A program made the translations under genes and the position numbers. From Stegostoma tigrinum (taxonomy: Eukaryota): a stretch of 64,000 nucleotides of DNA. Below the pieces are notes generated by a model. The model ran no database searches, was not told where the DNA came from, and saw only the letters and a list, made by a program, of their open reading frames with translations. Shown piece by piece: positions 14,003 to 60,198 of this stretch. The stretch covers positions 6,056,497 to 6,120,496 of the forward strand of contig NC_081387.1 in assembly GCF_030684315.1 (NCBI RefSeq), written 5' to 3'. How positions within the stretch are numbered: the stretch's first letter is position 1; each line of letters opens with the position of its first letter.

Positions 14003-15002
14003 CACTCTTATTGAGTTCTTTGTGAAGGTGACCAAACAGGTGGAGCGTTGGATGCGGTGCACATGGATTTCAGTAAAGCGTTTGAGAAGGTTCCCCATGG
14101 TAGGCTATTGCAGAAAACACTGAGTATGGGATTGAAGCTAATTTAGCAGTTTTGATCAGAAATTGGCTATCTGTAAGAAGACAGAGGGTGGTGGTTGATG
14201 GGAAATGTTCATACTGGAGTTTAGTTACTAGTGGTGTACGACAAGTATCTGTTTTGGGGCCGCTGCTGTTTGTCATTTTTATAAGTGACCGGGATGCGGA
14301 TGTAGAAGGATGGGTTAGTAAATTTGCGGATGACACGAAAGTCGATGGAGTTGTGGATAGTGTGGAAGGACATTGCAGGTTACAGGGGGACACAGATAAG
14401 CTGCAGAGCTGGATTCAGAGGTGGAAAATGGAGTTTACTGCGGAAAAGTGTGAGGTGATTCACTTTGGAAGGAATAAACAGGAATACAGAGTACTGGGCT
14501 AATGGCAAGATTCTTGGTAGTGTGGATAAGCAGAGAGATCTCGGTGTCCATGTGCATAGATTCCTAAAAGTTGCCACCCAGGTTGATAGGGTTGTTAAGA
14601 AGGCAGATGGTGTGTTAGGTTTTACTGGTAGAGGGATTGAGTTTCGGATCCATGAGGTCATGTTGCAGCTGTACAAAACTCTGGTGCGGCCGCACTTGGC
14701 GTATTGTGTACAGTTCTGGTCACCGCATTATAAGAAGGATGTCGAAGCTTTGGAAAGGATGTAGAGGAGATTTTCCAGGATGTTGCCTGGTATGGAGGGA
14801 AGATCTTACAAGGAAAGGCTGAGGGACTCGAGGCTGTTTTCGTTACAGAGAAGAAGGTTAAGAGGTGACTTAATAGAGACATACAAGATATCAGAGGATT
14901 AGATAGGGTGGATAGGGAGAACCTTTTTCCTCGGATGGTGATGGCTAGCACAAGGGGACGTAGCTTTAAATTGAGGGGTGATAGATATAGGACAGATATC
15001 AG
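14003..15002 (+). mobile_element. CR1 LINE RT fragment (an older CR1 piece lies at 13340-13620)
   Basis: [30 protein letters not shown]. Frameshifted; cut at 15003 by a Penelope element. Confidence 0.9.
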
Positions 15003-17100
15003 GTAACAAATTGTGGGGCTGGATGAACACAGCAGGCCAAGTAGCATCTTAAGAGCACAAAAGTTGACATTTCGGGCCTCGATCCATCATCAGAAAAGGG
15101 GGATGGGGAAAGGATTCTGAAATAAATAGAGAGAGAGGGGCAGGCAGACTGAAGATAGATAGAGGAGAAGATAGGTGCAGAGGAGAGTATGGGTGGGGAG
15201 GTAGGGAGGGGATAGGTCAGTCAAGGGAGGACAGGTCAAGGGGGTGAGATGAGTTTAGTAGGTAGGAAATGGGGGTGTGACTTGAGGTGGGAGGAGGGGA
15301 TAGGTGAGAGGAAGAACAGGTTAGGAGGGCAGGGAGGAGCTGGCCTGGTTTTGGGATGCATTTGCGGAGGGAAGGGGAGATTTTGAAGCTGGTGAAATCC
15401 ACATTGATACCATTAGGCTGCAGGGTTCCCAAGCGGAATATGAGTTGCTGTTCCTGCAACCTTCGGGTGGCATCATTGTGGCACTGCAGGAGGCCCATGA
15501 TGGACATGTCATCTAAAGAATGGGAGGGGGAGTGGAAATGGTTTGCGACTGGGAGGTGCAGTTTATTGCGAACCGAGCGGAGGTGTTCTGCAAAGCTGTC
15601 CCCAAGCCTCCGCTTGGTTTCCCCAATGTAGAGGAAGCCACACCGGGTACAGTGGATGCAGTATACCACATTGGCAGATGTGCAGGTGAACCTCTGCTTA
15701 ATATGGAAAGTCATCTTGGGGCCTGGGATAGGGGTGAGGGAGGAGGTGTGGGGGCAAGTGTAGCATTTCCTGCGGTTGCAGGGGAAGGTGCCGGGTGTGG
15801 TGGGGTTGGAGGGCAGTGTGTAGCGAACAAGGGAGTCACGGAGAGAGTGGTCTCTCCGGAAAGCAGACAGGGGTGGGGATGGAAAAATGTCTTGGGTGGT
15901 GGGGTCGGATTGTAGATGGCGGAAGTGTCGGAGGATGATGCGTATCCAGAGGTTGGTGGGGTGGTGTGTGAGAATGAAGGGGATCCTCTTTGGGCGGTTG
16001 TGCCAGGGGCGGGGTGTGAGGGATGTGTTGCGGGAAATGCGGGAGACGCGGTCAAGGGCGTTCTCAACCACTGTGAGGGGAAAGTTGCGGTCCTTGAAGA
16101 ACTTGGACATCTGCGATGTGCGGGAGTGGAATGCCTCATCGTGGGAGCAGATGTGGCGGAGGCGGAGGAATTGGGAATAGGGGATGGAATTTTTGCAGGA
16201 CGGTGGGTGGGAGGAGGTGTATTCTAGGTAGCTGTGGGAGTCGGTGGGCTTGAAATGGACATCAGTTACAAGCTGGTTGCCTGAGATGGAGACTGAGAGA
16301 TCCAGGAAGATTAGGGATGTGCTGGAGATGGCCCAGTGAACTGAAGGTTGGGGTGGAAGGTCTTGGTGAAGTGGATGAACTGTTCGAGTTTCTCTGGGGA
16401 GCAAGAGGCGGCGCTGATACAGTCATCAATGTCACTGAGGAAGAGGTGGGAGGAAGGGATGGGTGAGAGGAAGAACAGGTTAGGGAGGCAGAGACAGGTT
16501 GGACTGGTTTTGGGATGCAGTGGGTGGAGGGGAACAGCTGGGCTGGTTGTGTGGTGCAGTGGGGGGAGGGGATGAACTGCGCTGGTTTTGGGATGCGGTG
16601 GGGGAAGGGGAGATTTTGAAGCTGGTGAAGTCCACATTGATACGGTGCGGAAGAAGGACTGTTCCACGTAACCTACAAAGAGGCAGGCATAGCTGGGGCC
16701 CATGCGGGTGCCCATGGCCACCACCTTAGTCTGTAGGAAGTGGGACGAATCAAAAGAGAAGTTGTTGAGGGTGAGGACGAGTTCGTCTAGGCGGATGAGG
16801 GTGTCAGTGGAGGGGGACTGGTCGGGCCTGCGCGACAGGAAGAAGCGGAGGGCCTTGAGGCCATCTGCATGCGGAATGCAGGTGTATAGGGACTGGACGT
16901 CCATGGTGAAAATGAGGTGTTGGGGGCCAGGGAATTGGAAGTCCTGGAGGAGGTGGAGGGCATGGGTGGTGTCACGGACGTAGGTGGGGAGTTTTGGGAC
17001 CAAAGGGGTGAAAATGGAGTCCAGATAGGTGGAGCTGAGTTCGGTGGGGCAGGAGCAGGCTGAGACGATGGGTCGACCAGGGCAGGCAGGTTTGTGGATT
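15003..17100 (-). mobile_element. Penelope-like retroelement (RT and GIY-YIG), disrupted
   Basis: ORFs 16311-17003 (TMDVQSLYT, AMGTRMGPSYACLF, DIDD in place of YIDD) and 15217-16404 (CNRRKCYTC, NVVYCIHCTRCGFLYIGETKR). pLTR with hammerhead core at about 15065-15093. Confidence 0.95.
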
Positions 17101-17262
17101 ATTACAGCGTGTTATTTGCAGATAAACATTACAGGCTGTCACTGCCGTGAGGACAGTGAATCAGACCAGTGAAGGCCTTCAGTGAATGAATGGTAGTTTG
17201 GGAAGATCGAGAATAGCAGGAAGGGGTAAATACCTCTCCATGCCAAACGGCCCAGTTACATT

Positions 17263-17485
17263 AGTATCAGAGATAATGGGAACTGCAGATGCTGGAGAAT
17301 CCAAGATAATAAAATGTGAGGCTGGATGAACACAGCAGGCCAAGCAGCATCTCAGGAGCACAAAAGCTGACGTTTCGGGCCAAGACCCTTCATCAGAAGG
17401 GTCTAGGCCCGAAACGTCAGCTTTTGTGCTCCTGAGATGCTGCTTGGCCTGCTGTGTTCATCCAGCCTCACATTTTATTATCTTA
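17263..17485. mobile_element. Palindromic Penelope pLTR mini-insertion
   Basis: 89-bp inverted arms (17303-17391 and 17396-17484, 1 mismatch, 4-nt loop). 13-bp TSD gcccagttacatt at 17250-17262 and 17486-17498. Confidence 0.92.
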
Positions 17486-17620
17486 GCCCAGTTACATTGC
17501 TTTTCGAGACCCTCCGGGGAGAGGACGGCTCATTGTTGAGTTCCTGTTTTGCAGCCTGGTCTCGGAGTGATTCTCCCGGAAACTGGTGACGGTGCCCTTT
17601 AATTGGATGTTCTCACTGAG

Positions 17621-17775: not shown

Positions 17776-17827
17776 ATGTTGCTGATCCTTTTCTCCATCT
17801 CGCTATGTTTTTCCTGGGTCTCTTCCG
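17776..17827 (+). pseudogene. MHC class I-like leader exon, copy 1 (splice donor mutated)
   Basis: MLLILFSISLCFSWVSS plus a phase-1 G, 52 nt. Donor reads ataagt where the gene B paralogue has gtaagt. Confidence 0.8.
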
Positions 17828-18895
17828 ATAAGTACAGAATCCGGCTTTCCCTTCTCTCTCTCCCTCCCCGAGGGGGAGTCTGTGAATCTCTTGGCGAGTG
17901 AATGAAATGAGGGATGTTGCATCAGCCGCCTGTGATACAGCCAGACTGATATTTTCCCCACTGAAGGCAGTGCAGTCTGAAAGGTTCTGATGGGATTCTT
18001 TAAAATTCCTTTGTCATGGGATATTTGCCCCACTGCTTGGTCAGCATTTATTAACCATCAGAAATTGCTTTGGAGTGTATGGAGAGCCACATTGCTGTTA
18101 GGAGGTGGTTTCACCATTTTCATTCAAGGATAGTGAAGGAATGGTAATATGTTTCCAAGTCAAGATGTTAAGTGGCTTGGAAGGGACTTGGAGTGATGGT
18201 GTTCCCATGGTTTTCTTTCCAAATCGCTTGTGAGATGAGTGTTTCCCTGGGAGGGCCGGCATTTATTGTCCGTCCCTGGTTGTCCTTGTGAGGCGGTGGT
18301 AGCCGCCTTGTTGAACCACAGCAGACCACGGGCGGGGCTGGGACAGCAATCTGGGATTTTGACTTAGCGACAAAGAAGGAACCACAAATGTATTTCGAAG
18401 TTAGGTTGGTGACTGGCGTGGAGGGGAACTTTCAGGTCGTGGTGTTCCCATGTATCTGCTGACCTTTGTCCTTCGAGATGGAAGTGAGGGTGAATTTGAA
18501 AAAGTGCTTTCTAAGGATCAGTGGTGAATTTCTGCTGTGCATCTTGTAGCTAGTGCACGCAGCTGCTACTGAGCTTCGGTGGTGAAGGGAATGGATATGA
18601 TGTGAACACCCTGTTGTCCTGATGTTACAGAAGCGAACAATAATTATTACAGGATGATATTTGCAGATTAACATTACATCCCGTCACTGCCGTGAACGCA
18701 GCTAATTGGACCAGTGGCAGTTTGAAGGCTTTGTGAATTCATGGTCGTTTGGGAAGATCGATTGTGGATATCTCCTGAAGATAGCAGAAAGTGTCGAATA
18801 CCTCTCCATGCCAAACGGCCCAACTATGTTCCCTTTTGTCTCATCTAGACAAAAGAAGGCTTCGTTCTTTTAGTATTTTTTTTTGCAGCCTGACG

Positions 18896-21800
18896 TAAGA
18901 ACATAAGAACTAGGAGCAGGAGTAGGCCATCTGGCCCCTCGAGCCTGCCCTGCCATTTAATAAGATCATGGCTGATCTTTTTGAGACCGAGCTCCACTTA
19001 CCTACCCACTCACCATAACCCTGAATTCCTTTACTGTTCAAACACTTATCTAGTCTTGCCTTAAAAACATTTCGCGAGGTAATTTCAACTGCTTCACTGG
19101 GCAGGGAATTCCACAGATTCACAACCCTTTGGGTGAAGAAGTTCCTCCTGACCTCAGTCCTACATCTGCTTCCCTTTATTTTGAGGCTATGCCCTCTAGT
19201 CCTAGTTTCACCTGCTAGCGGAAACAACCTCCCTGCCTCCACCTTATCTATTCTCTTCATAATCCTATATGTTTCTATAAGATCTCCCCTCATTCTTCTG
19301 AATTCCCGTGAGTATAATCCCAGTCTACTCAGATCGAAGATGGCAGTTCCCATTGTCTCTGAAACAACTCTGGAATCAACCGAGGGAATCTCCTCTGCAC
19401 CCCCTCCAGTGCTAGTATATCTCTTCTCAAGTAAGGAGACCAAAATTGCACACAGTACTCCAGGTGTGGCCTCGCCAGGACCCTATACAGCTGCAGCATA
19501 GCCTGCCAAGCTGCATCTTCGGAGCAGAAAAGCTGTCGTTTGAGACCTAGACCCTTCATCAGAAATGAGGGAGGGGGAGAGGGTTCTGAAATAAATAGGG
19601 AGAGAGGGGGGAGGCAGATTGAAGATGGATAGGGGAGAATATAGATGGAGAGGAGACAGACGAGTTAGAGGCAGTTATGGAGCCAGTAGAGGTGAGTGGA
19701 GGTAGGGAGGGGTTAGGGCAGTCTGGGGAGGGCAAGAGAGTTGCAGTGGGAGAGAGATCCCCTGAGGTTTGTCCAGAGGGAGGAGGGTAACTTCAGGTTA
19801 GGCATCCCTAGAAGAGGCTTCGCAGTGAGGTTAAAATTGTATCAGAGATAATAGGAACTGCCATCTTCTATCTGCCTCCCCCTCTCTCCCTATTTATTCC
19901 AGAACCCTCTCCCTCATCCCCCATTTCTGATGAAGGGTCTAGGCCCGAAACGTCAGCTTTTCTGCCCCTAAGATGCTGCTTGGCCTGCTGTGTTTATCCA
20001 ACTGTACACTTTGTTATCTCGGATTCTCCAGCATCTGCAGTTCCTATTATCCCTGTAGCATATCCTCCCTGTTTTTAAAACCCATTCTTCGAGCAATGGC
20101 AGACAAAATTCCATGTGCCTTTTGAATTACCTGCTGCATCTGCAATCCTACTTTTAGTGATTCATACAGAAGGACACTCAAGTCCCCCTGTACAGCAGTG
20201 TGCTGCAATTGTTTATCATTTAAAGCATAGTCCATTTTGCTGTTATTCCTACCAAAATGCATGACCTCACACTTCTCAACATTGTACTCCATCTGCCAGA
20301 CCTTTGCCCACTCACTTAGACTATCTATATCCCTCTGCAGACTTTGTGTCTTCTGCAGACTTTGCTCTACCACTCATCTTAGTGTCATTTGTGAATTTTG
20401 ACACACCACACTTAGGCCCCAACTCCAAGTCATCAATGTAACTTATGAACATTGCGGTCCCAACGCTGATCTGTGAGGCACACCACTAGCCACTGACCGT
20501 CAACCAGAAAAACACCCATTTACCCCTGCTGTTTGCTTTCTACTGGTCAACCAATCTTCTATCCATGCCAATATATTACCTGTAATACCGTGGAACTTTA
20601 TCTTATGTAACAGCCTTTGGTGTGGCACCTTGTCAAATGCCTTCTGGAAATCCAGTTACACCAAATCCACAGGATCCCCAATGTCCACCGTGCAAGTAAT
20701 GTCTTCAAAGAATTCCACCAAATTAAACATTTAAACATGACCTACTCTTCATGAACCCATGCTGGGTGTTCCCAATGGGACAATTTATATCCAGATGTCT
20801 TGCTATTTCTTCCTTAATGATAGATTCAAGCATTTTCCCCACGACCGAAGTGAGGCTAACTGGCCTATCGTTACCTGCTTTTGGTCTACTTCCTTTTTTT
20901 AAACAGTGGCGTCACATTGGCTGCTTTCCAACCTGCAGGAACCACCCCAGAGTCCAGTGAATTTTAGCAAATAAACTAGTAATTATTTACCATTTTCCCC
21001 GTCACCTCTTTTAGTCCCCTGGGATGCACTTCGTCAGGGCCAGGAGACTTGTCTACCTTTAGCCCCATTAGCTTGCCCAGCATTGCCTGCTCAGTGATAA
21101 TGATAGTTTCTAGGTCCTTGCCGGCTATAACCACATTGCTATTAGTTTTCGGTGTGTTATTTGTGTCTTCCATAGTGAAGACCAACACGAAATAACTGTT
21201 GATGCTTCGGCTATTTCCTCATTCCCGGTTATGAAATTGGCCTTCTCACCCTCGAAAGGACCAATGTTTACCTTCGCCACTCTTCTACAATTCACATATT
21301 TATAGAAACTTTTGCTGCCTGTTTTTATATTCTGAGCTTCTTTGCTCTCATAATCTATCTTTTCTTTCTAACCTTTTTTGTGGCTTTCTGTTGGCCTCTA
21401 AAGATTTCCCAGCCTACCAGTTTCCCACTATTCTTTTGTAAGTTTTTTTTTCAATCTGATACTTTCCTTTATTTCCTTCGGCATCCTTGGCTGGCTGTCT
21501 CTTTCCTACAGTTCTGACTTATCACTGGAATATACTTCTGCTGAGCACAGTGAAAAATCATTTTGAAAGTCCTCCACTGTCCCTCAATTGACCCACCAGA
21601 AAGATTTTGCTCTACCTGAGCTAACTCCTCCCTCATTCCTGCATTGTCTCCTTTGTCTAAGCACAGGGCATAGGTACTGGATTTAACCTTCTCACGCCCC
21701 ATCTGTATTTTAAATTCGATCATATTGTGATCACTCCTTCCGAGAGAATCCCTAGCTGTGAGATCATTAATCCCTGTCTCATTACACAGGACTAGATCTC

Positions 21801-23150
21801 GGATAGCTTGCTCCCTCATAGGTTCAATTATGTATTGTTCAAGGAAATTATCACGGATGCATTCTATGAGCCCCTCCTCAAGGCTGCCATGACCGACCCG
21901 GTTTGACCAATCAATATATAGATTAAAATCCCCCATGATAATTGCTGTACCATTTTTACATGCATTATCTATTTCTCTGTTTATTGCCTGCCCCACCACG
22001 ATGTCATTATTTGGTGGCCTATAGACCACACCTATCAGTGATTTCTTCTCCCTGCTATTCCTAATTTCCAACCAAATGGATTCAACGTTTTGTTCAGTAG
22101 AACCTACATCATCTCTCACTCCTGCCCTGATATCATCCCTAAACACCAGAGCAACACCACCTCCCTTACCTTCATGTCTGTTTTTCTGAGCAGTTTGATA
22201 GCCCTGGATATTTAACTCCCAGTTATGACCATCTGTAACCATGTCTCTGTAATGGCCACTAAATTATACCCATTTGCCATGATTTGCGCCGTCAACTCAT
22301 CCACCTTGTTTCGAAAGCTCCGAGTGTTCAGATAAAGTACCCTTATGCCAGTTTTTGCACCTTCTTTTTGGGTCCTATTACCTCCATTACTAACAGCTCT
22401 GGAGTTCTCCTTCCCTTTAACATATTTTTCCTAATTTTCAATGGAGTTGAAACTTCCTCGTCATCTGCTAACCTGCTGCTTTGCTTTCCATTAATTTTTC
22501 TTCTCCCTCTACGCTCACTTCTCCCTTCCCCGCTACTTACTAGTTTAAAGTCCCATTAACCACCTTATTTACCATTTTTGCCAGAACACTGGTCCTGGCC
22601 CTGTTCAGGTGGAGCCCATCCCAGTGGTATAGCTCCCTCCTGTCCCAGAACTGATGCCATTTCCGCATGAAAAGGAAACCCTCTTTCCCACACCACTCTT
22701 TCAGCCACGTGTTTATTTCCCTGATCCTTGCCTCCCTATGCCAATTTGCGCGTAGCTCGGGCTGCAATCCAGAGATTATGACCCTTGAAGACCCGTCTTT
22801 CAAATTTGCTCCTAGCTTCTTGTAATCCCAGAAGAGGTCTTTTTTCCTAGTCCTGCCTATGTTGCTGGTACCTACGTGGACCACAACAACTGGATTCTCC
22901 CCCTCCCTCTCTCGTATCCTCTCAAGCCGGTCAGAGGTGTCTCGCACCCTGGCACTGGGCAGGCAACACACCATGCAGGATTCTCCATCCTGCTCGCAAA
23001 GGATACTGTCTATCCCCCTGATGATGGAACCCCTTACAGCTACAATCTGTCTTTTTCCTCCCCGCTCTTGAATGGCCTCCTGGACTATGGTGCTATGGTC
23101 AGTTGACTCATCCTTCCTGCAGCCCTGTTCCTCATCCAGGCAGTGAGCAA
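18896..23150 (-). mobile_element. Near full-length CR1 LINE, decayed
   Basis: ORF1 SGNH esterase (VVHVGTSNI...DGLHLN, 22540-22974), APE endonuclease (GVVYRPP, MGDFN, SDHN, 21469-22242), RT, and a (taagaaca)n tail at the left end. Confidence 0.93.
19501..20052. mobile_element. Penelope pLTR inverted-pair insertion nested in CR1
   Basis: Inverted pLTR arms, an intact + strand hammerhead core at about 19927-19954, and TSD ctg(c/t)agcata at 19491-19500 and 20053-20062. Confidence 0.85.
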
Positions 23151-23317
23151 GCCTCTGACTCTCTCTGAATGCGATGGCCCTGGTAACTGGTGACAGTGAG
23201 CCATCTGGTCCTATAAATTAGGTTTTTTTTTAAACTGAGACTAACCAATCAGTTGCCTTCTGCAGTCTGGAGAGGTTTGATCTGAAACGAAAAAGATTAT
23301 GTGGATTATTTTGATTG

Positions 23318-23635
23318 AGATCACAGAATCATCAAAGAATCCCGACAGTGTGGGAGCAGGCCCTTCTGCCCAACAAGTCCACACTGACCCTCAGAGCATC
23401 CCACCTCGGCCCATATAACCCACCTAATCTACACATCCCTGAACACTACGGGCAATTTAGCACGGCCAATCCATCTAACCTGCACATCTTTGGACTGTGG
23501 GAAGAAATCAGAGCACCCAGGGGAAACTCTCACAGACACGGGTAGAACGTGCAAACTGCACACAGACTGTCAGTGAAATCGCACCCAGGTTCCTGATGCT
23601 GCGAGGCAGCAGTGTGAACACTGAGCCACTGTGAT
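23318..23635 (-). mobile_element. HE1-like SINE in the gene A promoter
   Basis: Minus strand begins cacagtggctcagtg. Body matches the other copies. Confidence 0.85.
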
Positions 23636-23686
23636 CGATGAGCATATTTCACTCTTTGATTCAAATAGGCACAGAGGATTCCCAGA

Positions 23687-23734
23687 ATGTTGCTAGACCT
23701 TTTCTCCATCTTCCTGAGGTTTTTTTCCTGGGTC
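23687..23734 (+). pseudogene. MHC class I-like leader exon, copy 2 (truncated by a SINE)
   Basis: MLLDLFSIFLRFFSWV, then SINE sequence replaces the last codons and the donor. Intron-1 homology with the other leader copies resumes at about 24000. Confidence 0.75.
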
Positions 23735-23983
23735 ATAGAATCTTAAACTAAAATCCTTATGGTGTCAAAAGAGGCCATTCGGCCCACTGATATTGCAGCG
23801 ATCCTCCAGAGAGCGCCCCACTATTCCCACATTTCTTATTTATTCTGGCCAATCCACCTAACCTGGACATCATTGGACTTCGGGAGGAAACTGGAGTACC
23901 CAGCGGAAATCCATGAGGACACAGGAGAACGTACAAACTCCACAAACAGACAGTCACCCATGGCTGAAATCAGACCTGGGTCA
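23735..23983 (-). mobile_element. HE1-like SINE inside leader exon copy 2
   Basis: 'tggccaatccacctaacct...ggaggaaactggagtacccagcggaaatcca' body. Confidence 0.8.
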
Positions 23984-24189
23984 CCTTGTCACGTGAGACA
24001 TTGCTCTCTCCCTCTCTCTCTCGCTGGGGTGAATGTGAATCTTGGTGAGAGTTTGAAATGGGGGCTGTTTGGCCATCCACCCGTTATACAGCCAGCCTGA
24101 TATTTTACACACTGAAGGCAGCGCAGTCTGGGAGACGCTGATGGGATTTGTATCCAGGTGTCCTGACAGCAGGATGTAGAAACCCACAG

Positions 24190-24760
24190 ATCAGGAAGTG
24201 AGTGGCCCAGGCGGATTGCCCGTTGGGTGGCATTGAGCAGGTTGATGACACCTTCCATCACTTTCCTGATGATCAAGAGTAGGCTGATGGGTTGGTGGTT
24301 AGTTGGGTCGGATTTGTCCTGCTTTCTGTACGCTGTGTACGTGGGCAGTTGCTGAGTAGTCACTAAAATTGTTGTTGAACTGGAATGGTTTGGCTCAGGG
24401 TTGGCAGGTTCTGTCTTGAGTACTGGATTGTTGTCAGGGCCCATATTCTTTGCAGTGTCCTGTGCCTCCAGCTGTCTTATGATATCACATGGAGTGAATC
24501 AAATTGGTTGAAGACTGGCATCAGGTGGTAATGTTCACTCATGCTTGGACTGTTGATGCAAGGGTCCTTGGAGGAGGCTGGGATGGAATATCCATTCAGT
24601 ACTTCTGTCTGAAGATTGCAAATATTTCAAAATATCTTGAACTCTGATGTGCTTGGGATTTTTCTGGAGCCGACTGCTCCAGTGAGCTGTTTATTTGTAC
24701 ACTGTTATTAATGACTACATGTGGCAGGACTGCAGAGTTTAGATCTGATCTGCCTGTACC
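24190..24760 (-). mobile_element. LINE RT fragment
   Basis: KQDKSDPTNHQPISLLLIIRKVMEGVIN is a decayed NYRPISLL motif. Confidence 0.7.
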
Positions 24761-25712
24761 TGATTTTTCATTATTCTTCTCTGTATGTGCCTGACTCTCT
24801 ACATTACCTTCTGTTCCCAAATCTCACTCTCTGTATCATTATCTCTCTCCATATCATTCTCTGTGTATATTTACTGCACGCTCTACCGCCCACTTTCTCT
24901 ATTTTGCCCTCTGTCTCACTGGTTCTTGATGCCATTCTGTCTGTGTTTCATTATTTTTTCATAGTGCATTTTCTCAGTGTAAATGGTTCTCTCTTTTTCT
25001 CTTCCTTTGCCTGACTGCACTCACTCTCCGTATCACGCTTTCTCATGCCATTGTCTTTGACCACTGTCAAGAATGCCGTTCCCTCACACCCACCTCCCTG
25101 TACATCATCTCAGGCTGAATTTGAATTGGGCTGTGCTGTTTGACCTGAAGCTGAACTTCCAATCCCATAAGTTATCGGCTGTATTTTAGTCGGTGGCACT
25201 GCTGCATTTAATGAGAAAAACATATGGGTTCTCATTCTACTCCCAAGTCCCAAGCATAATATTTAACTCATGAACTAAATCTGGTCATTTTGGCACCGCT
25301 GATGTGAGAGCTAGCTGTTTACAAATGGACACTTGTATTTCTTCTAAAATTTTCATTACATCCTCTTCATCGTTATGAAGATTAGCAACTTCCCATTCAA
25401 GTCTCTCTTCCGCCTCCATCTGTTCCTCATCTCCTGCTGAAACTCTCGCCCATGTTTTTGGTACCACTACTTTCAACTATCTCATGGCCACTTTCTCATC
25501 TTGCTTCCTCCAGAATCTTAGGATCCTTAAGACCTTTGCCCATGCCTGTTTACTGCCTTGATGTTTAGTTTAAAATCTCAGATTCGGATTCTGATGTTGA
25601 AATGAAAAGGAGGTTATCATTGTCTAGTCATAATTCAATTAGATCAGTTGGCACTCTTTGGAAATATTATTAATCATAAATTAATCAATGATTTCATTGT
25701 CTTATTTGACAG

Positions 25713-25978
25713 ACCCGAGTTCCTTCACTGTGCTGTACACGGGAACCACTGGGATGACCGATGGCCCTGAGCTTGTTGGTGTGGCAATGCTCAATGGGGC
25801 TACCCTATCCTATTATGACAGTGAAATCTTGAAGATGGTTCCCACACAGCAGTTCATATCAAACTATCTCACTGTGGACGACTGGGATTATCTCACCCTC
25901 CTGGGTGATGATTATCTCACCCTCCTGTGATGAAGGAGACTTTGAATACGATCATGATATCGATGAACCTGACAGCTG
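25713..25978 (+). pseudogene. Gene A alpha1 exon (frameshifted)
   Basis: DPSSFTVLYTGTTGMTDGPELVGVAMLNG...YYDSE...DDWDYLT, then a shifted frame MKETLNTIMISMNLTA carrying the N86-type sequon NLT. 266 nt. Confidence 0.88.
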
Positions 25979-27049
25979 GTACGATGAGTCAAACTGTTAC
26001 CTGCCACTGAGAGCCAAGTTACTGTGGCTCTCTGGGGAGTTGGCTGCTACTCCTTGAGGATGAAGCAATTATTTTTCATATTGTTCTGCTCTGTCTCCAA
26101 CTCCAGACGTCTCCACTGTCCACAGCCAGCCCCATCTGAAATTTTGCATCATTCATGATTTTTTTTCCACAGATGGGGCCCTCACCCTTCAACACAATCT
26201 GAACCTTGACTTCTGTAGAGTTCCATTCTCTCCACTTAAACCTCATGGATATCAGTGGAAAAAGGTGAGGGAGAGCTGCTTGGCAAGTTGATATAAGGAG
26301 AAACATTCCGAGAGAGTAACAGAGAAGTGACCAATGGGCAGGAAAAGAGAGCTGGAAAACTAGAGAAACATAAACGAGGAGGTAGCAGCAGACATGATGG
26401 AGAAAGGGCGAGGAAGCATGAGGTGACAGTGGAGTGATGTAGGGGAAAGCCTGGCAAAAGAAAGCAGGACAGACAGTGACAGCATTCAGGAAACCATTCA
26501 GCCCATGATACATCTTCCATCCATTTGCGCTAGAAGTCTGACTTATTTCCATTTGGGAGCAATGATGACAAGGCAGCCTCAGAGCTTTGGTGAGGTCAGC
26601 TGAGATCATTCACTGCATCTTCTTCGGTGGCTGAACAAGCTGCTCCTGGAAAGGCAAAGTCTGCAACAAGCTGGGGCTGTCCTCAAGGTAGTGGGTGAAG
26701 GCCTCTGCTGGCACCTTGTTTGTAAGGTTAGTAACTGCTTTGGAGTTTCTGAAACAAAACGTCATGGTGGTGGTGAAATGTTGCCATGAAGCTGATGTTG
26801 CCATTTGCACAGTTCCACATGTTGCAGTTGATGCTGAAGGTGGCCATGTGTGTGTGTGTTTTTTCTTGACAGCATCTTTGATGAGTGGGAACTTTGGGTG
26901 CCTTGTTGGTCTCTTGACACTGGCTGCCATCCTGTATAGCATATCCTTGGGAATGTGGCTAGCCCTTCCAGCCTGGATGTAAGCCCGAGCCATGGTGAAC
27001 ATGAGCATGCTTGGCATGTTTTCCTGAGAAAGAGCTACCTCTTTTGGTT

Positions 27050-29000
27050 ACTTTGTCTTTCCATGATGTGCCATAGACGTATGATAGACACCAGAGATGG
27101 AACTTATTTTCTGTAGCCTTTCATCCTAATGGATGTAATTTGTCCATGTTCATTGTCATGGAGAAATATGCAAAGGATACAGGCCCTGTCAGTCAGGTTC
27201 CTGGTCCTGCGGATCAATGTTTTGTTGCTCCATGCCTGGCTGATGATACTGGCTTTCCTTCCAATGTGTGTGTTAAGCTCTTTGCCAAGAAATAGGGTGT
27301 CTGTCATCAGAGAATTTACTGACTGCTTCCAGTGATGTGTTTTTGAACACGGACAGAGACACATAGCCTTTCCTTTAGCTACAGTTTTTCAATACCAATA
27401 GTGAGGTACAACATGACACAGGCATATGGGGTATAAGATTCCTGAACATTGGAGCCGTTCTTCCATGTAGATAACTATTGCAGCATCATTCATCAGTCTA
27501 TCAAAGTGCTGCGATCAAGACTTGCTGCATTTTTGGACTTGACTTTCAGGCTTGTTCATTTGAGGAGTTTCTCATCAGGTTGGAAGGAAATACAACTCTT
27601 TCATGTCAGCAGTATGACAGAAAGAGGATACAAAACAAAATATGGATTAGGACTCAGACCAGTCTCCACCCATTCTTAATCAATGAACTGTAAGAGATGG
27701 AATCATTGAACTGATTGGTGCTGTGCATGTTTCCATGGAAGGACTGAACAAGAAAATGAAGATCAGGAGGTCAGCACATTCTCTCTAACATCCAATAGCT
27801 CCTGGTCTCATCGTGGTGTCAGATGCTTTCGTGAAATCCCCAAAAGCAAGGTAGAATTTCTTCTTTTTTCACTGCTTTCCACCTTCGCTTGAAGCTGAGA
27901 TTGGGATAACATCGTGCTTTCCAGATCTGTCTGATGTGAAGCTCCATTTTGCTGCTAGTTATATTCTGTTGGCTGGTTGATGAAGCCTTATTTGACTAGC
28001 TCTGGAAAAGCCTTCCAGAACCCTCTGCAGAGTGAAATGCCACAGTAGTTGCTTCAGTTTCCTCGAGTGCCTTTGTTCTTGTATAATTGGTTGAAATTAT
28101 GTCACACACATCGTGTGGAACAGAACTTTCTCCCTAATGGAATTGAACGACATAGAGGCGTCAAAACAAAGTAGGGTTTTCCGTACATGTATAGCCTTGA
28201 CTGGTATTCCATTCCTCCAGCGGCTTTCAGGGCTACAATGCGAGTCAATGGCCTTTTCAAGAAACATGACAGATAGCTGCAGATGATCATTAAGCACAGG
28301 CAGAGGGAGATATCTGGATCACATGGGTATAGTTAGAGTAGCCAATCTGTCCAGTGAGTCATTTGCGTCTTCAAATCAGTGACTACTCTCCCATTTGTGG
28401 ATCTCAAGAAGCAAGTTTTCTCGTGCTGCGCTTGAGTGTTCTCCTGATGATAATCAGCATGAAGGTTATCATTGTCACTAGCATCTATATTTCTTTATAT
28501 GGATTGGTGCAGTACCTGTAGGGACAGTACCTTTCTGCATCCTGCACAACTGTCTTCTCCAGTATTGGACTGGCATATGCCTTAGTGTAAAGACACAGTT
28601 TACACGCCAGGAGAGCTGTTCTGTTTGTTTTGATGACAGGACTCATTTCTGTAAAGTTGGATCTCAGTCCTGTTCATGATGCTTTCTTTGCGAGATCTGG
28701 TCACTGCAGTTTTGTTGTTAACTGTATCTCTGTGTGCAGGCATTTCAGTTCTTCATCATTGCTACTGACTGAGCCTTCAGATGGAAGAGACTGCACAAAG
28801 TTTCAGCATTTTTGCTATTCTCCATCAGTTCCTTGTGTCTGGCATGCTAATGGGTAGTATGCCACTATATGTGGACATGTTTGTTTATCATGTTTATGCT
28901 TTCATCTGACATGTGCTGGTGTGCACCTTGAAAAGATGATGTTAGCAACACAGTGTCAAATCTCTGTACCACGTCCAAGAAGCTGTCCATTTAGCCAATG
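27050..29000 (-). mobile_element. RTE-clade LINE remnant in gene A intron 2
   Basis: Decayed NYCGISL and FYLAFGDFTKASDT motifs on the minus strand at about 27810-28080. Confidence 0.6.
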
Positions 29001-30117
29001 CCAGAAAATGAGTCTGATCCAGATTCGCCAGGGAAATGACTTGTCTCGGGGTGGCAAATGCCTCAGAATATCACCTGGAGTATTGAGGAAGTGATCTTCC
29101 TTTTCAGCATTGACGCAGAAGATTGGTCAGCAAGCAGTCAGCGTTGACAAAACTTCCCGCTGCTGGAGCAAAGTGAAATGATGCATTTAAAGGATATGAT
29201 AGGCAATTTGATTACCTGTCATTCTGTTAGTGACAACAAAACATGGCTTACAGTGGACATCTGAATTTTGGTCATGCCAGTTAAAAGCATAATTTGCCTC
29301 ATTTATTGATTCAGTGTCAACCAATCATAGTGAATTTGAGAGCACCAAAGTCAATATTGTGTAGCCTGTAAGAACATGAGAGCTGGGAACAGGGAGTAGG
29401 CCATTCAGCCCAATGAATCTGCTCTGCCATTTGATACGACCATGGCTGAACTTATCTCAGCCTCAACTCTCCAGTCCTATCATTATCCATAACCCTTCAA
29501 CACATCACTAATTAAAAATCTTCTATCTCCTCCTTAAATTTACTCCATGTCCCTGCAATAATGAATTCCACAGATTATTTCCCCATTTAGAGAAGTGATT
29601 TCTCCTCATCTATGTTTTAAAATCTGCTACCCTTTATCCTAAAGCTATGCTTTCTCGTTTTAAGTTGCCCCACTGGAGAAAACGTACTCTCTACGTTGAC
29701 TTGCGAACCCCTTTTCTTATCTTTCATGCCTCTCCATCAGCCTGAATCATTCCTCACTCATTCCCACTGAATCACTGTGAAGCCAATTCCATGTCCTAAT
29801 CTCACCCTGAACCAATTCCATATTAATCACATTGCCATAACTGCTTCCATAGCTGGATTAAAATCTCAACATATTCAGAAATTCACGCTTCCTCATCATG
29901 GCCCAGAATGAATCCAAGAGTAATCTGATCCTCTCTGATCAGACTGCTTCCCTAAATCCCCTAATTCTATCTGATACAAAACACTCTTTCACCTCTAATC
30001 AGAATGTGACTCGCAATTTCCATTTCTATCGGATAATGGATTCCCTTGCCCTCTAATCGGATAGTTTGTGGTTATCCATTCATTATTACTGATTGACGCC
30101 TGCTTGGTCACTGACAG

Positions 30118-30393
30118 GAATTCACACTCTCCAATGGCTACGTTCCGTTGAGGTCAGTGATGACGGCTCTGTGAAGAGATCAATGCGATTTGGATTTGAC
30201 GGGAAGGACTTCATTAGTTTAGAGCCAGACAGAATGAGATGGGTCGCAGCCAATCACTTTGCAGTGAAGACTAAATATAAATGGGATTCAGATGAATCTT
30301 GGAACAAGTATTGGAGATGGCAATTGGAAACAGAACTATTTGACCTTTCAAATAATTACTTGCGAGTTGGAAAGGAATATTTCAAAAGGAAAG
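30118..30393 (+). CDS. Gene A alpha2 exon (open, 276 nt)
   Basis: GIHTLQWLRSVEV...FGFDGKDFISL...AVKTKYKWD...YFKRK. Canonical class I exon-3 length; AG/GT intact. Confidence 0.93.
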
Positions 30394-30510
30394 GTATGTA
30401 TTTCAGTTTTGATCCCATGTTCTGCTCTAACCTCACTGATCTATGTAACTGCTGTCCCATTCCATTCAGTGTCTGTCTATTGTTTCTGTTCTCACCCTTT
30501 CCCATCACAG

Positions 30511-30791
30511 TTCAGCCTGAAGTGTTCATCTCCAGGAGTGAGCCCAAATCTTCAGGACAAGCCGTCCACTCGCTCCTGTCTGGACACTGGATTTTATCCT
30601 GTAGACATCGAGGTGACCTGGCTAAGGAATGGGGAGGTCATGTCCGAGACACAATCCTCGGGGATTCGACCGAACCACGATGGGACTCATCAGATCCAGA
30701 AAGAGATATTGAATCATTGCTGGGGATGAGGATCAATATTCCTGCCAAACTGAACACAGCAGCCTGGCAGAGGCCAAGCTGTATCAGTGGG
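30511..30791 (+). pseudogene. Gene A alpha3 (C1-set Ig) exon with two +1 frameshifts
   Basis: SCLDTGFYPVDIEVTWLRNG...PNHDGTHQ...YSCQTEHSSL. 281 nt versus 279 in gene B, with extra bases near 30547 and 30708. Confidence 0.92.
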
Positions 30792-31952
30792 GTAAGAATA
30801 TGATGTATTTATGTGTTTATGACAGATTGTAGGTCAGAGGACACTGGTTCACTACCTCGCCTGCACATATACACCTTTCTCCCTATACTTTCTTGTTGTG
30901 TTGGTCTCACCTGAGTTGAGTATTCCAATTTTAAGTTTGTCAAGGTCTCTTGTTCCTGAGTTTTCAAGTCTTTTGATGGAGATTTTCACATTCCCACTGC
31001 CCTGTTGTTGGTGAATTATTCACCAGTTTCACTCTGAAATGACCCCACCGTAATTACATGAAGACTTTCTTGCATTCCAGGCTTCAGCACTGGACATGGG
31101 CCCTGACTGTTCAACACCCAGTCAGTTAGAGACTGGTCAGACCCTAAAAGAGGAAGGTCTGGACCCCTCAGAATTCCTGACTCATTAAATGGGATTTTTT
31201 TCGGGAAGTTTCAACTTCCAATTGACAATTACTTAGCATCTGGAACCCTCTGAAAAGGTCTCCAGTTCTGAGTTAGAGTCGGAGACTTTGCAGAGCTCTG
31301 ACTCACCTCAATACTAATACGGGAAGCGTGAAAGAGATTAAAAGCTTCTTTAATTCCTAATATGATGATGCTGCCACTTTCAAAGGTTATTTTATCCTTT
31401 TGTTTTGAAGAGCGGTTATAAGGCATATGTGCTGCTAAAGACAACTTCAGCAAACAACTTGGCTTTTCTCAGGGTGTTAGAACATTGACAGAGCTGACGA
31501 GCTGCTTTCAGATCCAGATTTCCCAGTTTCGGTATTAACAGTAGCATCAGAAGCCAATGGGCCTTAAGAGTTCGGAGCTTCAGTGAATGCCTCCCGGCTA
31601 TTACTGTCTCTGATTATTTTCTTAATGTTGTTCCCTCCTAGATTGGAGGACTGAGTGTAAGAATCTGTGTCTGAATTTGCCTTTTTGCCAAAGCGTGTAT
31701 TTATGGGATGTTAATATATTGGAACAATTAATTAGCAATAGGTACTGTACTCTGTTATTCGGTTACAGTTTTCAATAGTTAAATTATTCTAAATTCCTTT
31801 TCCTTTTGTTTGTATTTTAAATGCAGTGTTCAAATCAAGTGTGTTTTGCTTAACATAGTGTAGTTTGACCAATTGCATCGCATCTGGAACAGGCCACTTC
31901 ATATCTACTTTTAAAATAAGAAATAGTTTAAACCCAGGCTATCTTCTTAAAA

Positions 31953-32410
31953 GATAATAAAATGTGAGGCTGAATGAACACAGCAGGCCAAGCAGCATCT
32001 CAGGAACACAAAAGCTGACGTTTCGGGCCTAGACCCTTCATCAGAGAATGGGGAGGTCATGTCCGAGACACAATCCTCGGGGATTCGACCGAACCACGAC
32101 GGGACCCATCAGATCCAGAAAGAGATTTGAATCAGTGCTGGGGATGAGGATCAATACTCCTGTCAAATTCAACACAGCAGCCTGGCAGAGGCCAAGCTGT
32201 ATCAGTGGGGTAAGAATATGATGTATTTATGTGTTTATGACAGATTGTAGGTCAGAGGACACTGGTTCACTACCTCTCTGATGAAGGGCCTAGGCCCGAA
32301 ACGTCAGCTTTTGTGCTCCTGAGATGCTGCTTGGCCTGCTGTGTTCATCCAGCCTCACATTTTATTATCTTGGAATTCTCCAGCATCTGCAGTTCCCATT
32401 AGCTCTGATA
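31953..32410. mobile_element. Palindromic Penelope pLTR insertion carrying a copy of the alpha3 exon 3' part
   Basis: Inverted arms 31951-32047 and 32275-32371. TSD ctatcttcttaaaa at 31939-31952 and 32411-32424. Centre 32046-32276 copies 30627-30858. Confidence 0.9.
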
Positions 32411-33234
32411 CTATCTTCTTAAAAAACCATTTTGCGGGGGTCTAGTCTGGTCCATAACACGAGGGAACTATAAAACTGACCATCTCCAAACCTACTGCTC
32501 AACACCCACTTCACGCACTGTCGAGGATATCTGGTTAGCATGGGCAAGTTGGATTGAAGGATCTGTTTCCATGCTGTGTGGCTGTATGACGCCATTCCCT
32601 CAAACACATGTCCTGACAATCCGCAAGCAATGCTTGATCTTGCCCCAGCACCAGCACCAGTTCACCAGCTCCAGATGCCTGTCTGACTTGCAACGCATCA
32701 CCCCAGCCAGCCGATTGAAACGCAACACACAATACCGCCCCCGCTGCGTCCATCCCCGCTTGCCCGCTGGACCTCTAACATGATCCCTTCACTGCCCCAC
32801 TACGGCACCCAAACAACATTCCATTGTCACTCAATATCCCTGACACTCACCAGTGAGACCCCCAACTGACCCTTGCCCAGCAACCCAAGAACTGAATCTT
32901 TGGGATAACTCAGTACACCCCTTCAACCATTCACTCACTGCTCCAGCTCAACCCTGGTCCACCTACCCCTCCACCACCAGCAAGGACCGGACACAGATGT
33001 CAGGGAGAATGTGAACTGAGAAGGTAACCCCTAGGATGGGCACCACAAGATGTTTGCACCCCCATCAGTGGGATCTTTAATGACTTCAGTGGAGAATGCC
33101 ATTGGGAGAGGGTCAAACCAGCATTTCAATGAATCCCGTCAATTCCCAAAGGGCAGGAGCAGGTAAAATCAGCGCAAAGCTGGAAATAAATCCAGGAACA
33201 GCAAGAATCCTGACCTATTTCCAATGTGTTTCAG

Positions 33235-33354
33235 AAATTCCCAAAAGCAGTTGGCGACTCTCCTACCTCGGAGGTTTCATTGCATCGATGATCTTTCTAT
33301 TGGCTGTTATTGTTGGGATAATCGGAATAATCATCTGGAAAAGGCCATGGAGAG
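33235..33354 (+). CDS. Gene A connecting peptide/transmembrane exon
   Basis: EIPKSSWRLSYLGGFIASMIFLLAVIVGIIGIIIWKRPWR, 120 nt, AG/GT intact. Confidence 0.9.
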
Positions 33355-34246
33355 GTAAGAATCGGTGAGCGAGAGGGGGATGTGAAACTGAGGGTACAGA
33401 GAGAGTCAGGGGGTATCTTCAGGACTGGAGCACACGACACTGAATGGAACTGATTAAACTCCCACACACAGATACACATGTATAAACATAGCTTAGCCTC
33501 TGTTTGATCTTCCTTTGTGTGAGCAGCCCAGACCAGGTCTAATATTGATCATTAAACCCAGCACACACATTAACATCCCCACTGACTGAACATGGATGCA
33601 ATGGGAGAAATCACCAGAATCTCCATGAAGTGTAAGGGTGGAGGGGATTGTGGGAATGAGAATTTATTCCACAATCACTGTAAAATTGTATTTTGGCACT
33701 CTCACCTAGATAAATTAAGATCTCTACCTTAATTAGTTTGTACAGTTTGGATTACTTAATACTTTGGCCAGACCCTCAGCATGCGGATCCTCTACCCATG
33801 ATGTATTCATTTGGTTTGACTCCAGCATCACGCTACTTTTAATTTTTTGGAATTATCTCTCTGCCAAATTTAATCGGATTATAGGTCATTCCTTCACTTG
33901 TTATTCAGCTGTTCACACTTTACTCACACCATCTGACACTTCTGGTCACCTGCAGAGACGTATTACTCGACGCTCCACTCGCACCATTTGTGTGATCTTT
34001 TGACCTCTCTTATAAATTCAGTGCCTGTGTGCTTCTTACTTCACCTGACAAAGGGGCTATGCTCCAAAACCTTGTGATTTCAAATGAACCTGTTTTACTA
34101 TGACATGGTGTTGTGTGAATCCTGACTTTGTCCACCCCAGTCCAACACCGGCACTTCCACATCAATCTCCATTCCCTCACACTTGTTGTGTTCTCACTGA
34201 GAATGGATTAGTTCCCTTTCTAATGGACATTTATTTTGTTCTGCAG

Positions 34247-34279
34247 ATTCACTAAGTGGGACCTACGCCACAGCTCGTG
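34247..34279 (+). CDS. Gene A 33-nt cytoplasmic exon
   Basis: DSLSGTYATAR between ctgcag and gtaagt. Paralogue at 55234-55266. Confidence 0.82.
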
Positions 34280-34652
34280 GTAAGTATTTGAAGGGACAGG
34301 GTATTGGGAATGATGGGTAGGGCATTGGAAGGTGTGCAGTTATATTTGCCTGGTGTTGTTGAGGGTGGCATGTCAGTCTCCTCTCAGTGCTGTTCCTCAA
34401 CCACCACTCTTTTATCATCCTCTTCAATTCCATGTCCCCAGTGCCTCTCCTTACAATTGTCACCCTCCATGTCCGCCTCTCCCTCCAATCCTTCACCCTT
34501 GACTCCCATTTGGCTGTGCTGCAAGATTGTGGTTAGTTAATTGTTGAGGGTGATTGAATGATAGGAGATATCTCACACTGCTTAATTTTATATTTTATTC
34601 CATTTCTGACATTCTGTTTTTATTTTCTCACCTTTTGATGCCTCTGTTGCAG

Positions 34653-34667
34653 CTTCTTCATGATTCA
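34653..34667 (+). CDS. Gene A 15-nt stop-codon exon (ASS*)
   Basis: ttgcag|CTTCTTCATGATTCA|gtaagt. Equivalent exons in genes B and C. Confidence 0.75.
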
Positions 34668-34719
34668 GTAAGTGGCATGTCAACTCCTCCCAACAGACTT
34701 ATTTCTAACTGATACAGTA

Positions 34720-36039: not shown

Positions 36040-38260
36040 GTGGTAAAGGAAGGCACAGTGGAAGCTAAAAATGTGTAAAAAAATGTTCAACCTGAGCAGG
36101 AGTTGATTGAGAATGTATAGATATCAGGAGGAGCAGGGAGAGAAATTAAGATTGAAAGAGATAAAGGAACAGGCCAATCTTTGGTAAGAGATGAGGAGCT
36201 ATGTAATTCAGTCAGACTATCGCCAGAAAAGATAGTAAGGTGTGGAATTCAAGTGGGAAGAACAGTGTTCCTTTATATAAAGTGAGATTGGAGAGTCTGG
36301 TGAAAAATGGAGAAGTTGTGGTCGGAGTAACACAGAAATTGTCAGTTCTGAAAATACAGTTTATCCTTTGTAATGATATAGTGGGATCATAGGTAGGAGT
36401 GATGCCGACTATGGCTGAAAAGCCAGTGGAAAATCAGACAACTGAGGTATTACAAGAAGTGTATCCTGGTATTTTTCCTGACTGAATGGTAATAAGGTCA
36501 CAAAGCCATCGGCTGAAACAGGAGGAGAAATTAAGGAGTAAAGATGAGGAAGTTGAAGTTCAGTTGTCAGAAACTACGCTCAGTCAAATGGCTGAGAAAA
36601 ACACAAGGACAGGTTGAGGAATAAGTTCATGTGTTTAGCCCAGAGAACTGAGCTGGATTACAATGGAAAGATGAAAAACAAAAACAGTTGAATCAAAAAG
36701 CGTACACAGAAGAAGAATCTGAGTGTAGCTGGAATGTTACTATCTTAAAAATGATGTCTTAAAGAGGAAACATAGACTATCACATATTCAAGCAGATGAA
36801 AAATGGGCAGAAGTACATCAAAGATAATAGGAACTGCTGATGCTGGTGAATCCGCGATACCAAGGTGTGGAGTTGGATGAACACAGCAGGCCAAGCAGCA
36901 TCTTAGGAGCAGGAACGCTGACGTTTTGGGCCCAAAATGTCAGCTTTCCTTCTAAGATGCTGCTCAACCTGCTGTGTTTATCCAACTCCACACTTGTTAT
37001 CTCAGAAGTTCATCAAGTTGTGTTACTAGTGGGTTACAGAAAGGAAGTATTGCGGGTAGCACATAGATTATCATAGGAGGCCGTTTCGGAGCTAGAAAAC
37101 CCCAAGCCAAAATACAAAGGCTTTTTATTTTGGCCTGCACTGCATAAGGATGTGATTGAATTTTGCTGGACATGTCATGCCTGCCAGGTAACAGGAAAAC
37201 CTCATGCAGTGATTAAGCCAGCCCTTAATACCCATACCTGCATTTGAATACCTGTTACAAGGGCCTTACTTGATTGTGTCGGACCCCGAACTAAAACAAA
37301 AAAGTGTTTGTTGACCATAATGAATGAGCCTGCTGGATTTCCAGAGCCACTCCATAATGCAGGATCACAGCTTGTAAGAAAATGTTGCGTAACCCTTCTC
37401 CTAGATATGGACTACGATAGCAATACAGTCAGATCAAGAAGCAAATTTTACTTCAGAGTTATTCAAGGAAGTTATGGATAGCTTATTAATAAAAATAATC
37501 AAATCCATTGCAAACAATCCAGAAGTACATGGAGCATTATGACGGTGGCATGAAACTTTAAAGACCATGTTGAGAACATATCATCCTGACTCTCCAGGGA
37601 ATTAGGATAAAGGAATTTCATTTGTACTTTTTGCAATTAGAGATGCACCGAGAGAATCAACTAAAGTCAGCCCATTTGAATTTGTTTTTTGGCATGAGGT
37701 GAGACGGCCATTGAAATTAATTAAGGGGAAATTGGTATGTCAGAGTTCAGAGACCACATATTTGGATAGTGTCAAATTTCCGAGAGATATTAAATAGAGT
37801 GGGTGAGTTGGCGAGGCAAATTTAAATGTGGTGCAGCATGTGATAAAACAGAAAGCAGACAAGATCAAAAATTTGTAATTTTGCTCATGGAGATAATGCG
37901 CTCGTGTAACTCCCAGTGGCAGGTGAACGTTTGAAAGCAAGGTTTTAGTGGCACAGGGTCAAAAGAAATTGAAAGCACTCTTCGAGATGGCATGGTCAAA
38001 GTGATTTGCAGTGAATGGAGCAGCATTGCGACGGTGCCAGGCCTGTGTAGTAGTAAATTATTGTGCTTGGACTCTCGCAAAGTCATCTGATTCAAATCCT
38101 AGTCCATGCCTGGAAGGTTTTGTTGGGAAAGTGCGACAAGCAACATATATTACTCAGTTGGATTTACTCAGAGGACACTGACAGGTACCTTTATCTAAAA
38201 GAGTGAGGGAAATTATAGTTTTTCTGTCACTGAAATGGACTTTACCCATTTACACTCATG
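36040..38260 (+). mobile_element. Gypsy pol remnant
   Basis: EVHQVVLLVGYRKEVLRVAH...WPALHKDVIEFCWTCHACQ (integrase zinc finger), IQSDQ and SPFEFVFGHEVR motifs. Many stops. Confidence 0.8.
36822..37002. mobile_element. Older palindromic Penelope mini-insertion inside Gypsy pol
   Basis: Inverted arms centred near 36930. TSD cagaagt(a/t)catcaa at 36808-36821 and 37003-37016. Confidence 0.85.
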
Positions 38261-55233: not shown

Positions 55234-55266
55234 TGTGAGCTGCTGTGTAGGCCCCACTTGGTGACT
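55234..55266 (-). CDS. Gene B 33-nt cytoplasmic exon
   Basis: ESPSGAYTAAH with AG and GTAAGT. Confidence 0.8.

Positions 55267-60192: not shown

Positions 60193-60198
<6 letters not shown>

Follow-up and report, generated by a model that had tools for sequence, protein, structure and literature searches.

The host gene and its relatives in the window

Using homologous proteins mapped onto the window, by which we mean the whole stretch of 64,000 nucleotides that was analysed, we located a shark MHC class I pseudogene on the + strand at 17776..34670. Protein mapping placed its leader at 17776 and its TM exon at 33235-33355, and between these lie alpha1 (~25712-25977), alpha2 (30118-30393) and alpha3 (30511-30791), all on the + strand. 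The gene has the alpha1/alpha2, C1-set alpha3 and TM exons of a shark MHC class I gene, with Pfam matches to MHC_I (E 1.4e-15) and C1-set (E 1.2e-7), and 63 of its 102 candidate homologues are shark class I-like proteins, the best at 82%. The alpha2 exon is open. As alpha1 contains a short duplication with a stop and alpha3 contains two +1 insertions, the host gene is a pseudogene.

The alpha2 exon (30118-30393) lacks both canonical cysteines, as do 29 of the 36 parsable homologues; judged from these letters, the gene may belong to a nonclassical class I lineage, and a cysteine-less alpha2 is a trait of the UEA lineage. The parts of two papers that supplied the lineage context (PMC10751288, PMC12562908) include a description of shark nonclassical class I UEA as a multicopy cluster (PMC10751288), and an assignment of the host gene to UEA would be only a lead. 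Two further MHC class I copies or remnants lie on the - strand at 54900-60350 and 7880-9700. The alpha3 at 57.5 kb is interrupted by an in-frame stop and has Ser in place of a Cys; in the 54900-60350 copy, the alpha1 and alpha2 matches are separated by a 39-bp tandem array. The third MHC copy also has a 61-bp tandem array close to its 3' end (54321-54910), and a single related unit lies at 8241.

An insertion with inverted arms around host sequence

The intron 3' of the alpha3 exon contains an insertion of 458 nt between two exact 14-nt TSD copies (31939-31952 and 32411-32424) that frame the whole unit, in agreement with a preliminary description of this DNA, which gave 458 bp and a TSD of 12-14 bp. 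Upon comparing 3000 random window pairs at equal spacing, we obtained no repeat as long as this TSD (0/3000). Within the frame, two pLTR arms of 97 nt each (31951-32047 and 32275-32371) stand head-to-head and are 97% complementary. The short arm (31951..32047, RNA sense -) starts on the last 2 nt of the left TSD copy, is tail-less and, of the two fixed 3' sites, stops at the inner one. The body of the long arm (32273..32371, RNA sense +), whose inverted-repeat part is 32275-32371, is continued by a ~40-nt PLE 'tail' (32372..32411, +; the term is that of portions of PMC11167929, PMC3846280 and PMC8557442), and the arms are unequal in that only the right one has this extension. Both arms carry a minimal hammerhead-type core pointing outward, at 32044-32017 on the - strand of the short arm and at 32278-32305 on the + strand of the long arm, just where such cores had been proposed.

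Between the arms lies a fill of 231 nt (32046..32276, +), a direct copy of host sequence that comprises the 3' part of the alpha3 exon (32046-32209), the GT donor at 32210 and 67 nt of intron. Both inner junctions show microhomology. At the left one (32046..32047) it amounts to 2 nt, within the 2-3 nt reported earlier, while the right one (32273..32276) exceeds that range with 4 nt, as measured against the copy at 11689.

The arms are pLTRs of a Penelope-like element

We identified the arms as pLTRs of an EN+ Penelope-like element through a decayed coding copy at 15001..17110 (-), in which RT motifs are followed by a C-terminal GIY-YIG-type stretch and whose pLTR is 84-86% identical to the arms; the Penelope identity suggested beforehand thus found support. 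The RVT_1 match of this copy is weak (Pfam, E 0.017). The endonuclease part gave no Pfam match, and its motifs were recognised by eye as being of the GIY-YIG type. A Penelope/Poseidon-type assignment rests on domain order and structure, by which it appears supported. In the same copy, the RT region is interrupted by ~200 nt duplicated from the copy's own 3' UTR (16445-16643, 96% to 11301-11499).

According to portions of PMC3846280 and PMC8557442, a canonical EN+ PLE insertion consists of an inverted 5'-truncated copy, a one-sided 30-40-bp tail and a TSD. The unit described here likewise has an inverted 5'-truncated copy adjoining a pLTR, a one-sided tail of ~40 nt and a TSD, and a tail on one arm alone also occurs in the sister hairpin at 17263 and in the pair at 36817. 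Across the window, the 3' ends of arms fall at two fixed sites ~40 nt apart, with five of the nine tabulated ends at or near the inner site and four at the outer one.

The hammerhead cores conform to CUGANGA, with C, T, G, A, G and A invariant and position 7 variable in all 10 aligned window copies. In excerpts of PMC4209133, metazoan PLE minimal type I hammerheads carry an extra nucleotide before helix II, and the arm cores have this extra base as well. They share with the hammerheads of those excerpts the overall layout, the CUGANGA core, the position of the extra nucleotide before G10.1-C11.1, the GAAA, the palindromic two-base helix III and the cleavage triplet. Against the helix I of 4-5 bp expected of such ribozymes, the shark motifs have one of ~2 bp, and their predicted minimum-energy folds are alternative, non-catalytic hairpins (z from -1.2 to 0.4 for three of four segments, the fourth being the palindrome of the sister). 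A search of Rfam with E up to 1 returned five matches, all under the gathering score and none of them a hammerhead. As the two motifs lie on opposite strands, one transcript would hold no tandem dimer. Both arms run through the predicted ribozyme cleavage site to ~30 nt beyond the predicted cut, and we rejected ribozyme cleavage as the process that set the position of the tip, since the arms extend past the cut by this length.

Unfilled and older hairpins nearby

A sister hairpin of the same subfamily, at 17250..17498, has a long arm with tail, a short arm, a direct tip join and no fill. The 4-nt loop that had been ascribed to it was indeed seen (17263-17485), together with a 13-nt TSD, and its tip ends are joined through 2 nt of homology. 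At the tip, neither arm of the filled insertion is shorter than the long arm of this sister. Upon inspecting five inverted pairs in the window (17263, 19497, 31939, 36817 and 48311; a decayed nest at 429-877 could not be resolved and was left out of the count), we found host fill in one of them.

The remaining copies vary in age and form. At 11076-11791 lies a single 5'-truncated copy of the same young subfamily, which ends at the inner, tail-less site and has an 11-nt TSD. The pair at 19497-20057 is older and has longer arms around element-derived sequence, and another older pair, at 36808-37016, is joined inside hammerhead helix II. Furthermore, a second, unrelated PLE-type family contributes a hairpin at 48218-48435, a near-perfect palindrome between outward hammerhead cores with unequal arms and a 12-nt TSD; the hairpin layout arose in another PLE-type family too.

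The fill probably derives from the nearby alpha3 exon and intron

The donor of the fill, at 30627..30858 (+), spans the 3' part of the alpha3 exon and the start of the following intron, 1.4 kb upstream of the insertion and within the same gene. Fill and donor match in 224 of 232 columns, in direct orientation, with seven substitutions and one indel, which upholds the earlier proposal that 231 nt had been copied from this interval. The fill contains the last 165 of the 281 exon bases, the donor site and 67 intron bases; the first 116 nt of the exon and the native acceptor are absent. As the fill crosses the exon-intron boundary, its template was unspliced, and a spliced mRNA was rejected as the source on the same ground. 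In the window, the intron part finds no match other than its source and itself, and the DNA or pre-mRNA template suggested in the preliminary description fits this local, unspliced character.

All eight differences between fill and donor lie inside a 72-nt span of the exon part (p ~0.0013 against uniform placement), much as the ~70-nt cluster noted previously. The last 39 exon bases and the 67-nt intron part are identical to the donor, and the intron identity by itself is not significant (p ~0.065). Neutral ageing alone does not explain this clustering, which needs later gene conversion or another donor allele. The likely causes are a different allele of the donor or conversion between alpha3 paralogues, of which there are several; conversion of this kind would act on the exon part of the fill only. 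We also considered ADAR editing, which has been reported for L1 (PMC11702581), and rejected it: the types of change are mixed, and the fill equals the 57.5-kb paralogue at five of the eight differing sites. At the other three, it is the donor that equals the paralogue.

The same five sites raise the question of whether the fill came from elsewhere than the donor in cis, either from the other allele, from a near-identical copy of the pseudogene (on the homologue or as a tandem duplicate) or from a host transcript carried along with the element. Short-read contigs add to this reading. A contig of a related organism (X1, which holds 0.05 of the sampled words, leaves the insertion site uncovered and was used solely for its alpha3 letters) has the letter of the fill at 30687, 30739, 30745, 30750 and 30752, and the summed alpha3 depth implies several more family members than the window holds. 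Against it stand the 67 intron bases and last 39 exon bases that are identical to the cis donor, as well as 12 sites that unite fill and donor against the 57.5-kb paralogue, from which the fill differs at 15 sites. Later change in the donor accounts for the agreement with the outgroup just as well: among the 54 parsable of the 63 shark homologues, the Ile and the Thr of the donor occur in none (0/54 each), which places these changes on the donor side, while the Gln of the fill occurs in two of 54. Overall, we regard a source other than the cis donor as quite unlikely. With the cis donor as source, the fill mostly preserves an earlier state of the donor pseudogene.

The fill has an in-frame TGA at 32128-32130. 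Its letters are common to fill and donor, whereas the homologues have Glu at this place in 52 of 54 cases and Gly in two, which are the two closest hits. The simplest history is that the stop predates the copying and that a +1 insertion in the donor followed, and the copy was probably dead on arrival, non-coding from the start.

Short-read contigs at the insertion

A run search returned four runs of one organism with 0.65-0.69 of the sampled words. We compared the contigs of three conspecific runs (X2, X3 and X5) and of the related organism (X1), leaving out X4 (sample S3) and the bisulfite runs X6-X8. The conspecific runs may stem from the same individual as the assembly.

In all three conspecific runs the contig of the left flank stops exactly at 31952, the last base of the left TSD copy, and a record of 159 nt aligns from its base 17 at 32411, the first base of the right copy. 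The 16 unaligned bases and the 14-nt TSD add up to the 30-base overlap expected for 31-mers, which is the geometry of an empty site with the TSD sequence present once. The depth of this record is about half that of the flank in each of the three runs (20.2 versus 32.1, 9.7 versus 23.3 and 8.7 versus 20.0). From alignment geometry and depth we infer that the record represents an empty-site allele beside the filled one, the alternative being that it comes from a recent paralogue; the insertion is likely polymorphic. Between 30961 and 33015, the conspecific contigs and the window disagree through substitutions at scattered places, and the contigs have 9 nt inserted at 33015, which suggests a second haplotype with ~1% divergence over this interval.

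At the fill itself the contigs say less. Among the contigs listed for X2, X3 and X5, none bridges an inner junction on either side, and in all three runs the donor contig continues through 30858 without a break. At 32128-32129, again among the contigs listed, the paralogue letters account for 123.6/123.6 of the depth in X2 and 77/77 in X5, and 5.9/97.3 of the depth in X3 is without them; as contigs drop variants, missing fill letters are not proof of absence. Taken together, the reads support the outer insertion and, weakly, the fill.

Such data bear on the possibility that the assembly mis-resolved a palindrome and filled it with reads of the neighbouring exon. Inverted PLE structures trouble assemblies, according to portions of PMC8557442, and the unspanned inner junctions as well as the paralogue letters in X2 and X5, which take the place of fill-type ones, would be expected of such an artefact. 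It would leave unexplained, however, why the fill differs from the donor at eight sites and from the paralogue at 15 in an evolutionarily sensible pattern, why its junctions fall on microhomologies at the usual tip position of the family, and why the graph forks precisely where the TSD ends in three of three runs. The donor contig of X3, which starts at 30753, just past the last difference between fill and donor, speaks weakly in the same direction. Hence, we consider an assembly artefact very unlikely.

Joints between arms are abundant in the contigs (15 among those listed and 1321 more), and short in-between letters of 1-10 nt occur at arm joints in 12 listed cases and 589 more. This suggests that direct or short-patched tips are common, with the proviso that joints scored at 85% likeness within a repeat are unreliable and blind to long fills. 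Loose contig ends pile up at 32045-32047 and at 32277, where the arms of the reference end too, so that the pile-up is not proof of a stop hotspot.

How the filled hairpin may have formed

We interpret the locus as a short Penelope-like insertion whose inverted arms enclose a 231-nt copy of the host gene, laid down while the element was inserting as a repair patch guided by microhomology, a reading to which we assign a probability of roughly two in three. It takes its steps from work on a lizard element and on human L1, and by analogy with these, priming from both ends of the target would be expected to yield arms in head-to-head arrangement, a tail on one side and a single TSD. In the portions of the work on Anolis Poseidon that we drew on, the protein cleaves and extends both strands in vitro (Frangieh et al., PMC11167929), and reverse transcription starts at two sites that bracket the tail, with uncleaved RNA as the template (PMC11167929). 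The two arm-end sites of the window match the two in vitro start sites of Poseidon, and arms that read through the predicted cleavage site fit an uncleaved RNA template.

The sequence itself shows the anatomy, the TSD, the junctions, the unspliced and locus-specific nature of the fill and the broken state of the host gene; the sequence of steps, the direction in which the copy was made, the enzyme that made it and the choice of DNA or RNA as template are inferred, as follows. The endonuclease of the element would cut both strands 14 nt apart, and each 3' end of the target would prime cDNA synthesis with the element RNA as template, one cDNA beginning at the outer start site and the other at the inner, to yield an arm of ~140 nt with a tail and one of 97 nt without. 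Both cDNAs would stop once they were 3-5 nt beyond the hammerhead core, a point that may be the 5' end of the element RNA. In the ordinary outcome, for which the sister at 17263 may serve as the example, the ends would then be joined directly through 2 nt of homology. At the filled locus, 4 nt at the end of the long-arm cDNA probably paired with the host sense strand at 30855-30858, ~1.1 kb upstream, on a template that may have been resection-exposed DNA or unspliced pre-mRNA. Left of the break, 5' resection would expose the sense strand, and the pre-mRNA is of this same strand. After 231 nt had been copied, the new end would be joined to the short-arm cDNA by 2 nt with the TSD intact; annealing, copying and a 2-nt join would thus produce the observed order and orientation. 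The stop would already have been present in the donor exon at the time of copying, making the copy non-coding. One case is equally compatible with DNA and with RNA as the template.

Alternatively, a hairpin with longer arms may have been inserted first, its centre later breaking as a cruciform and being patched from the nearby exon-intron junction. Such later repair would leave the same junction features, longer-armed pairs do exist in the window (for example at 19497-20055), and long perfect inverted repeats are fragile. Yet the arms stop within 2 nt of each other, at the place where the long arm of the sister stops, an agreement that a break at random in the centre would produce only by chance. 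The divergence between fill and donor (8/232) is close to what the age of the arms predicts (2/89 and 1/89 from the majority of five arms), and the empty site is the only other allele seen. Later repair is therefore unlikely in our view. The preliminary description had left open whether copying took place at integration or in repair of the tip; with the arms ending at the usual tip of the family, we favour patching during integration over repair at a later time.

Comparison with known systems

The elements of this event are known separately: inverted pLTRs with a tail, capture of host sequence between pLTRs, and local patches at retrotransposon junctions have each been published. With canonical Penelope/Poseidon units the insertion shares head-to-head pLTR arms, a tail on one arm, a discrete TSD and a minimal hammerhead core in the pLTR; unlike in those units, the shark arms consist of the pLTR end alone, with no ORF, and the tip holds host DNA. 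In Adineta vaga, an NRPS insertion as described in part of PMC3846280 consists of host DNA that is enclosed by pLTRs and flanked by a TSD, and an allele lacking the insertion exists. The shark insertion resembles it in its unspliced host sequence within pLTRs, its one TSD and its empty allele, and departs from it in that the A. vaga pLTRs are direct and their cargo moved in trans, whereas the shark arms are inverted and enclose a short piece with a donor 1.4 kb away. As a short piece, inverted arms and a donor in the same gene indicate junction repair rather than transduction, we rejected PLE-mediated host gene transduction of the A. vaga NRPS type.

In the sections of PMC11702581 consulted, three L1 insertions carry patches templated from DNA near the integration site. 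As in L1 twin-priming according to the same sections, both target ends appear primed, the TSD is kept, the inner join shows microhomology and the patch is local and genomic; the fill has the marks of a locally templated patch, namely a nearby match, an unspliced state, microhomology at the joins and a retained TSD. In contrast to L1 twin-priming, where the two halves are adjacent, non-overlapping parts of the RNA, the shark arms cover the same 97 nt and lack a poly(A). In the literature searched, which lay mostly outside subscription journals and supplements, we found no Penelope hairpin with a local host patch in sharks. A preprint on retrozymes (10.64898/2026.07.22.740005) and one on L1 (10.1101/2024.08.27.596794) contained nothing that applied directly. 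We view the filled hairpin as a neat variant of known events and not as a new exon.

How Penelope elements finish their insertion and form inverted structures is a question that is still open. The filled locus and its unfilled sister provide a matched pair that fits two-end priming from two start sites followed by microhomology joining. Across a genome, repair from a DNA template would be distinguishable from a switch onto nascent RNA by the side, strand and length of whatever fills the space between inverted arms. Should long fills prove frequent, elements as abundant as these would give rise to local duplications, exon pieces included. For the present, the insertion is of use mainly as a marker, being probably polymorphic, and as a record of how the pseudogene read at an earlier time.

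The copied exon piece

The preliminary description had proposed the insertion as a possible route for exon duplication. For this copy the proposal went unsupported: the native acceptor is missing, the exon lacks its first 116 bases out of 281, a TGA stands in frame and the donor gene is broken, a point that the preliminary description did not mention. The copy, which also lacks the N-terminal part of the Ig domain, gives no sign of function in its letters and is a defunct piece in a gene that is itself defunct. How much such insertions matter for exon duplication turns on how often they occur across the genome. We consider unlikely a broader version, in which double-primed Penelope hairpins, of extreme abundance in shark genomes, would regularly span the gap between their two cDNA ends with hundreds of bases from the gene at the landing site, the antisense arm providing a branch point and an in-phase acceptor and turning every filled hairpin into a cassette for local exon duplication. 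Such hairpins could then drive domain duplication repeatedly in shark immune gene clusters, and would allow the two-start-site Penelope mechanism to be read out in vivo.

Next to the GT donor, cryptic AGs are present in phase. The antisense arm contains a branch-point-like motif and two AGs (32031-32032 and 32043-32044) within 32016..32044 (+), in phase with the copied exon, and either AG together with the copied donor gives a predicted exon of 165 or 177 nt in the correct phase. These candidate acceptors would keep the idea of exon duplication alive in principle; the 97-bp stem would pair over the candidate acceptor.
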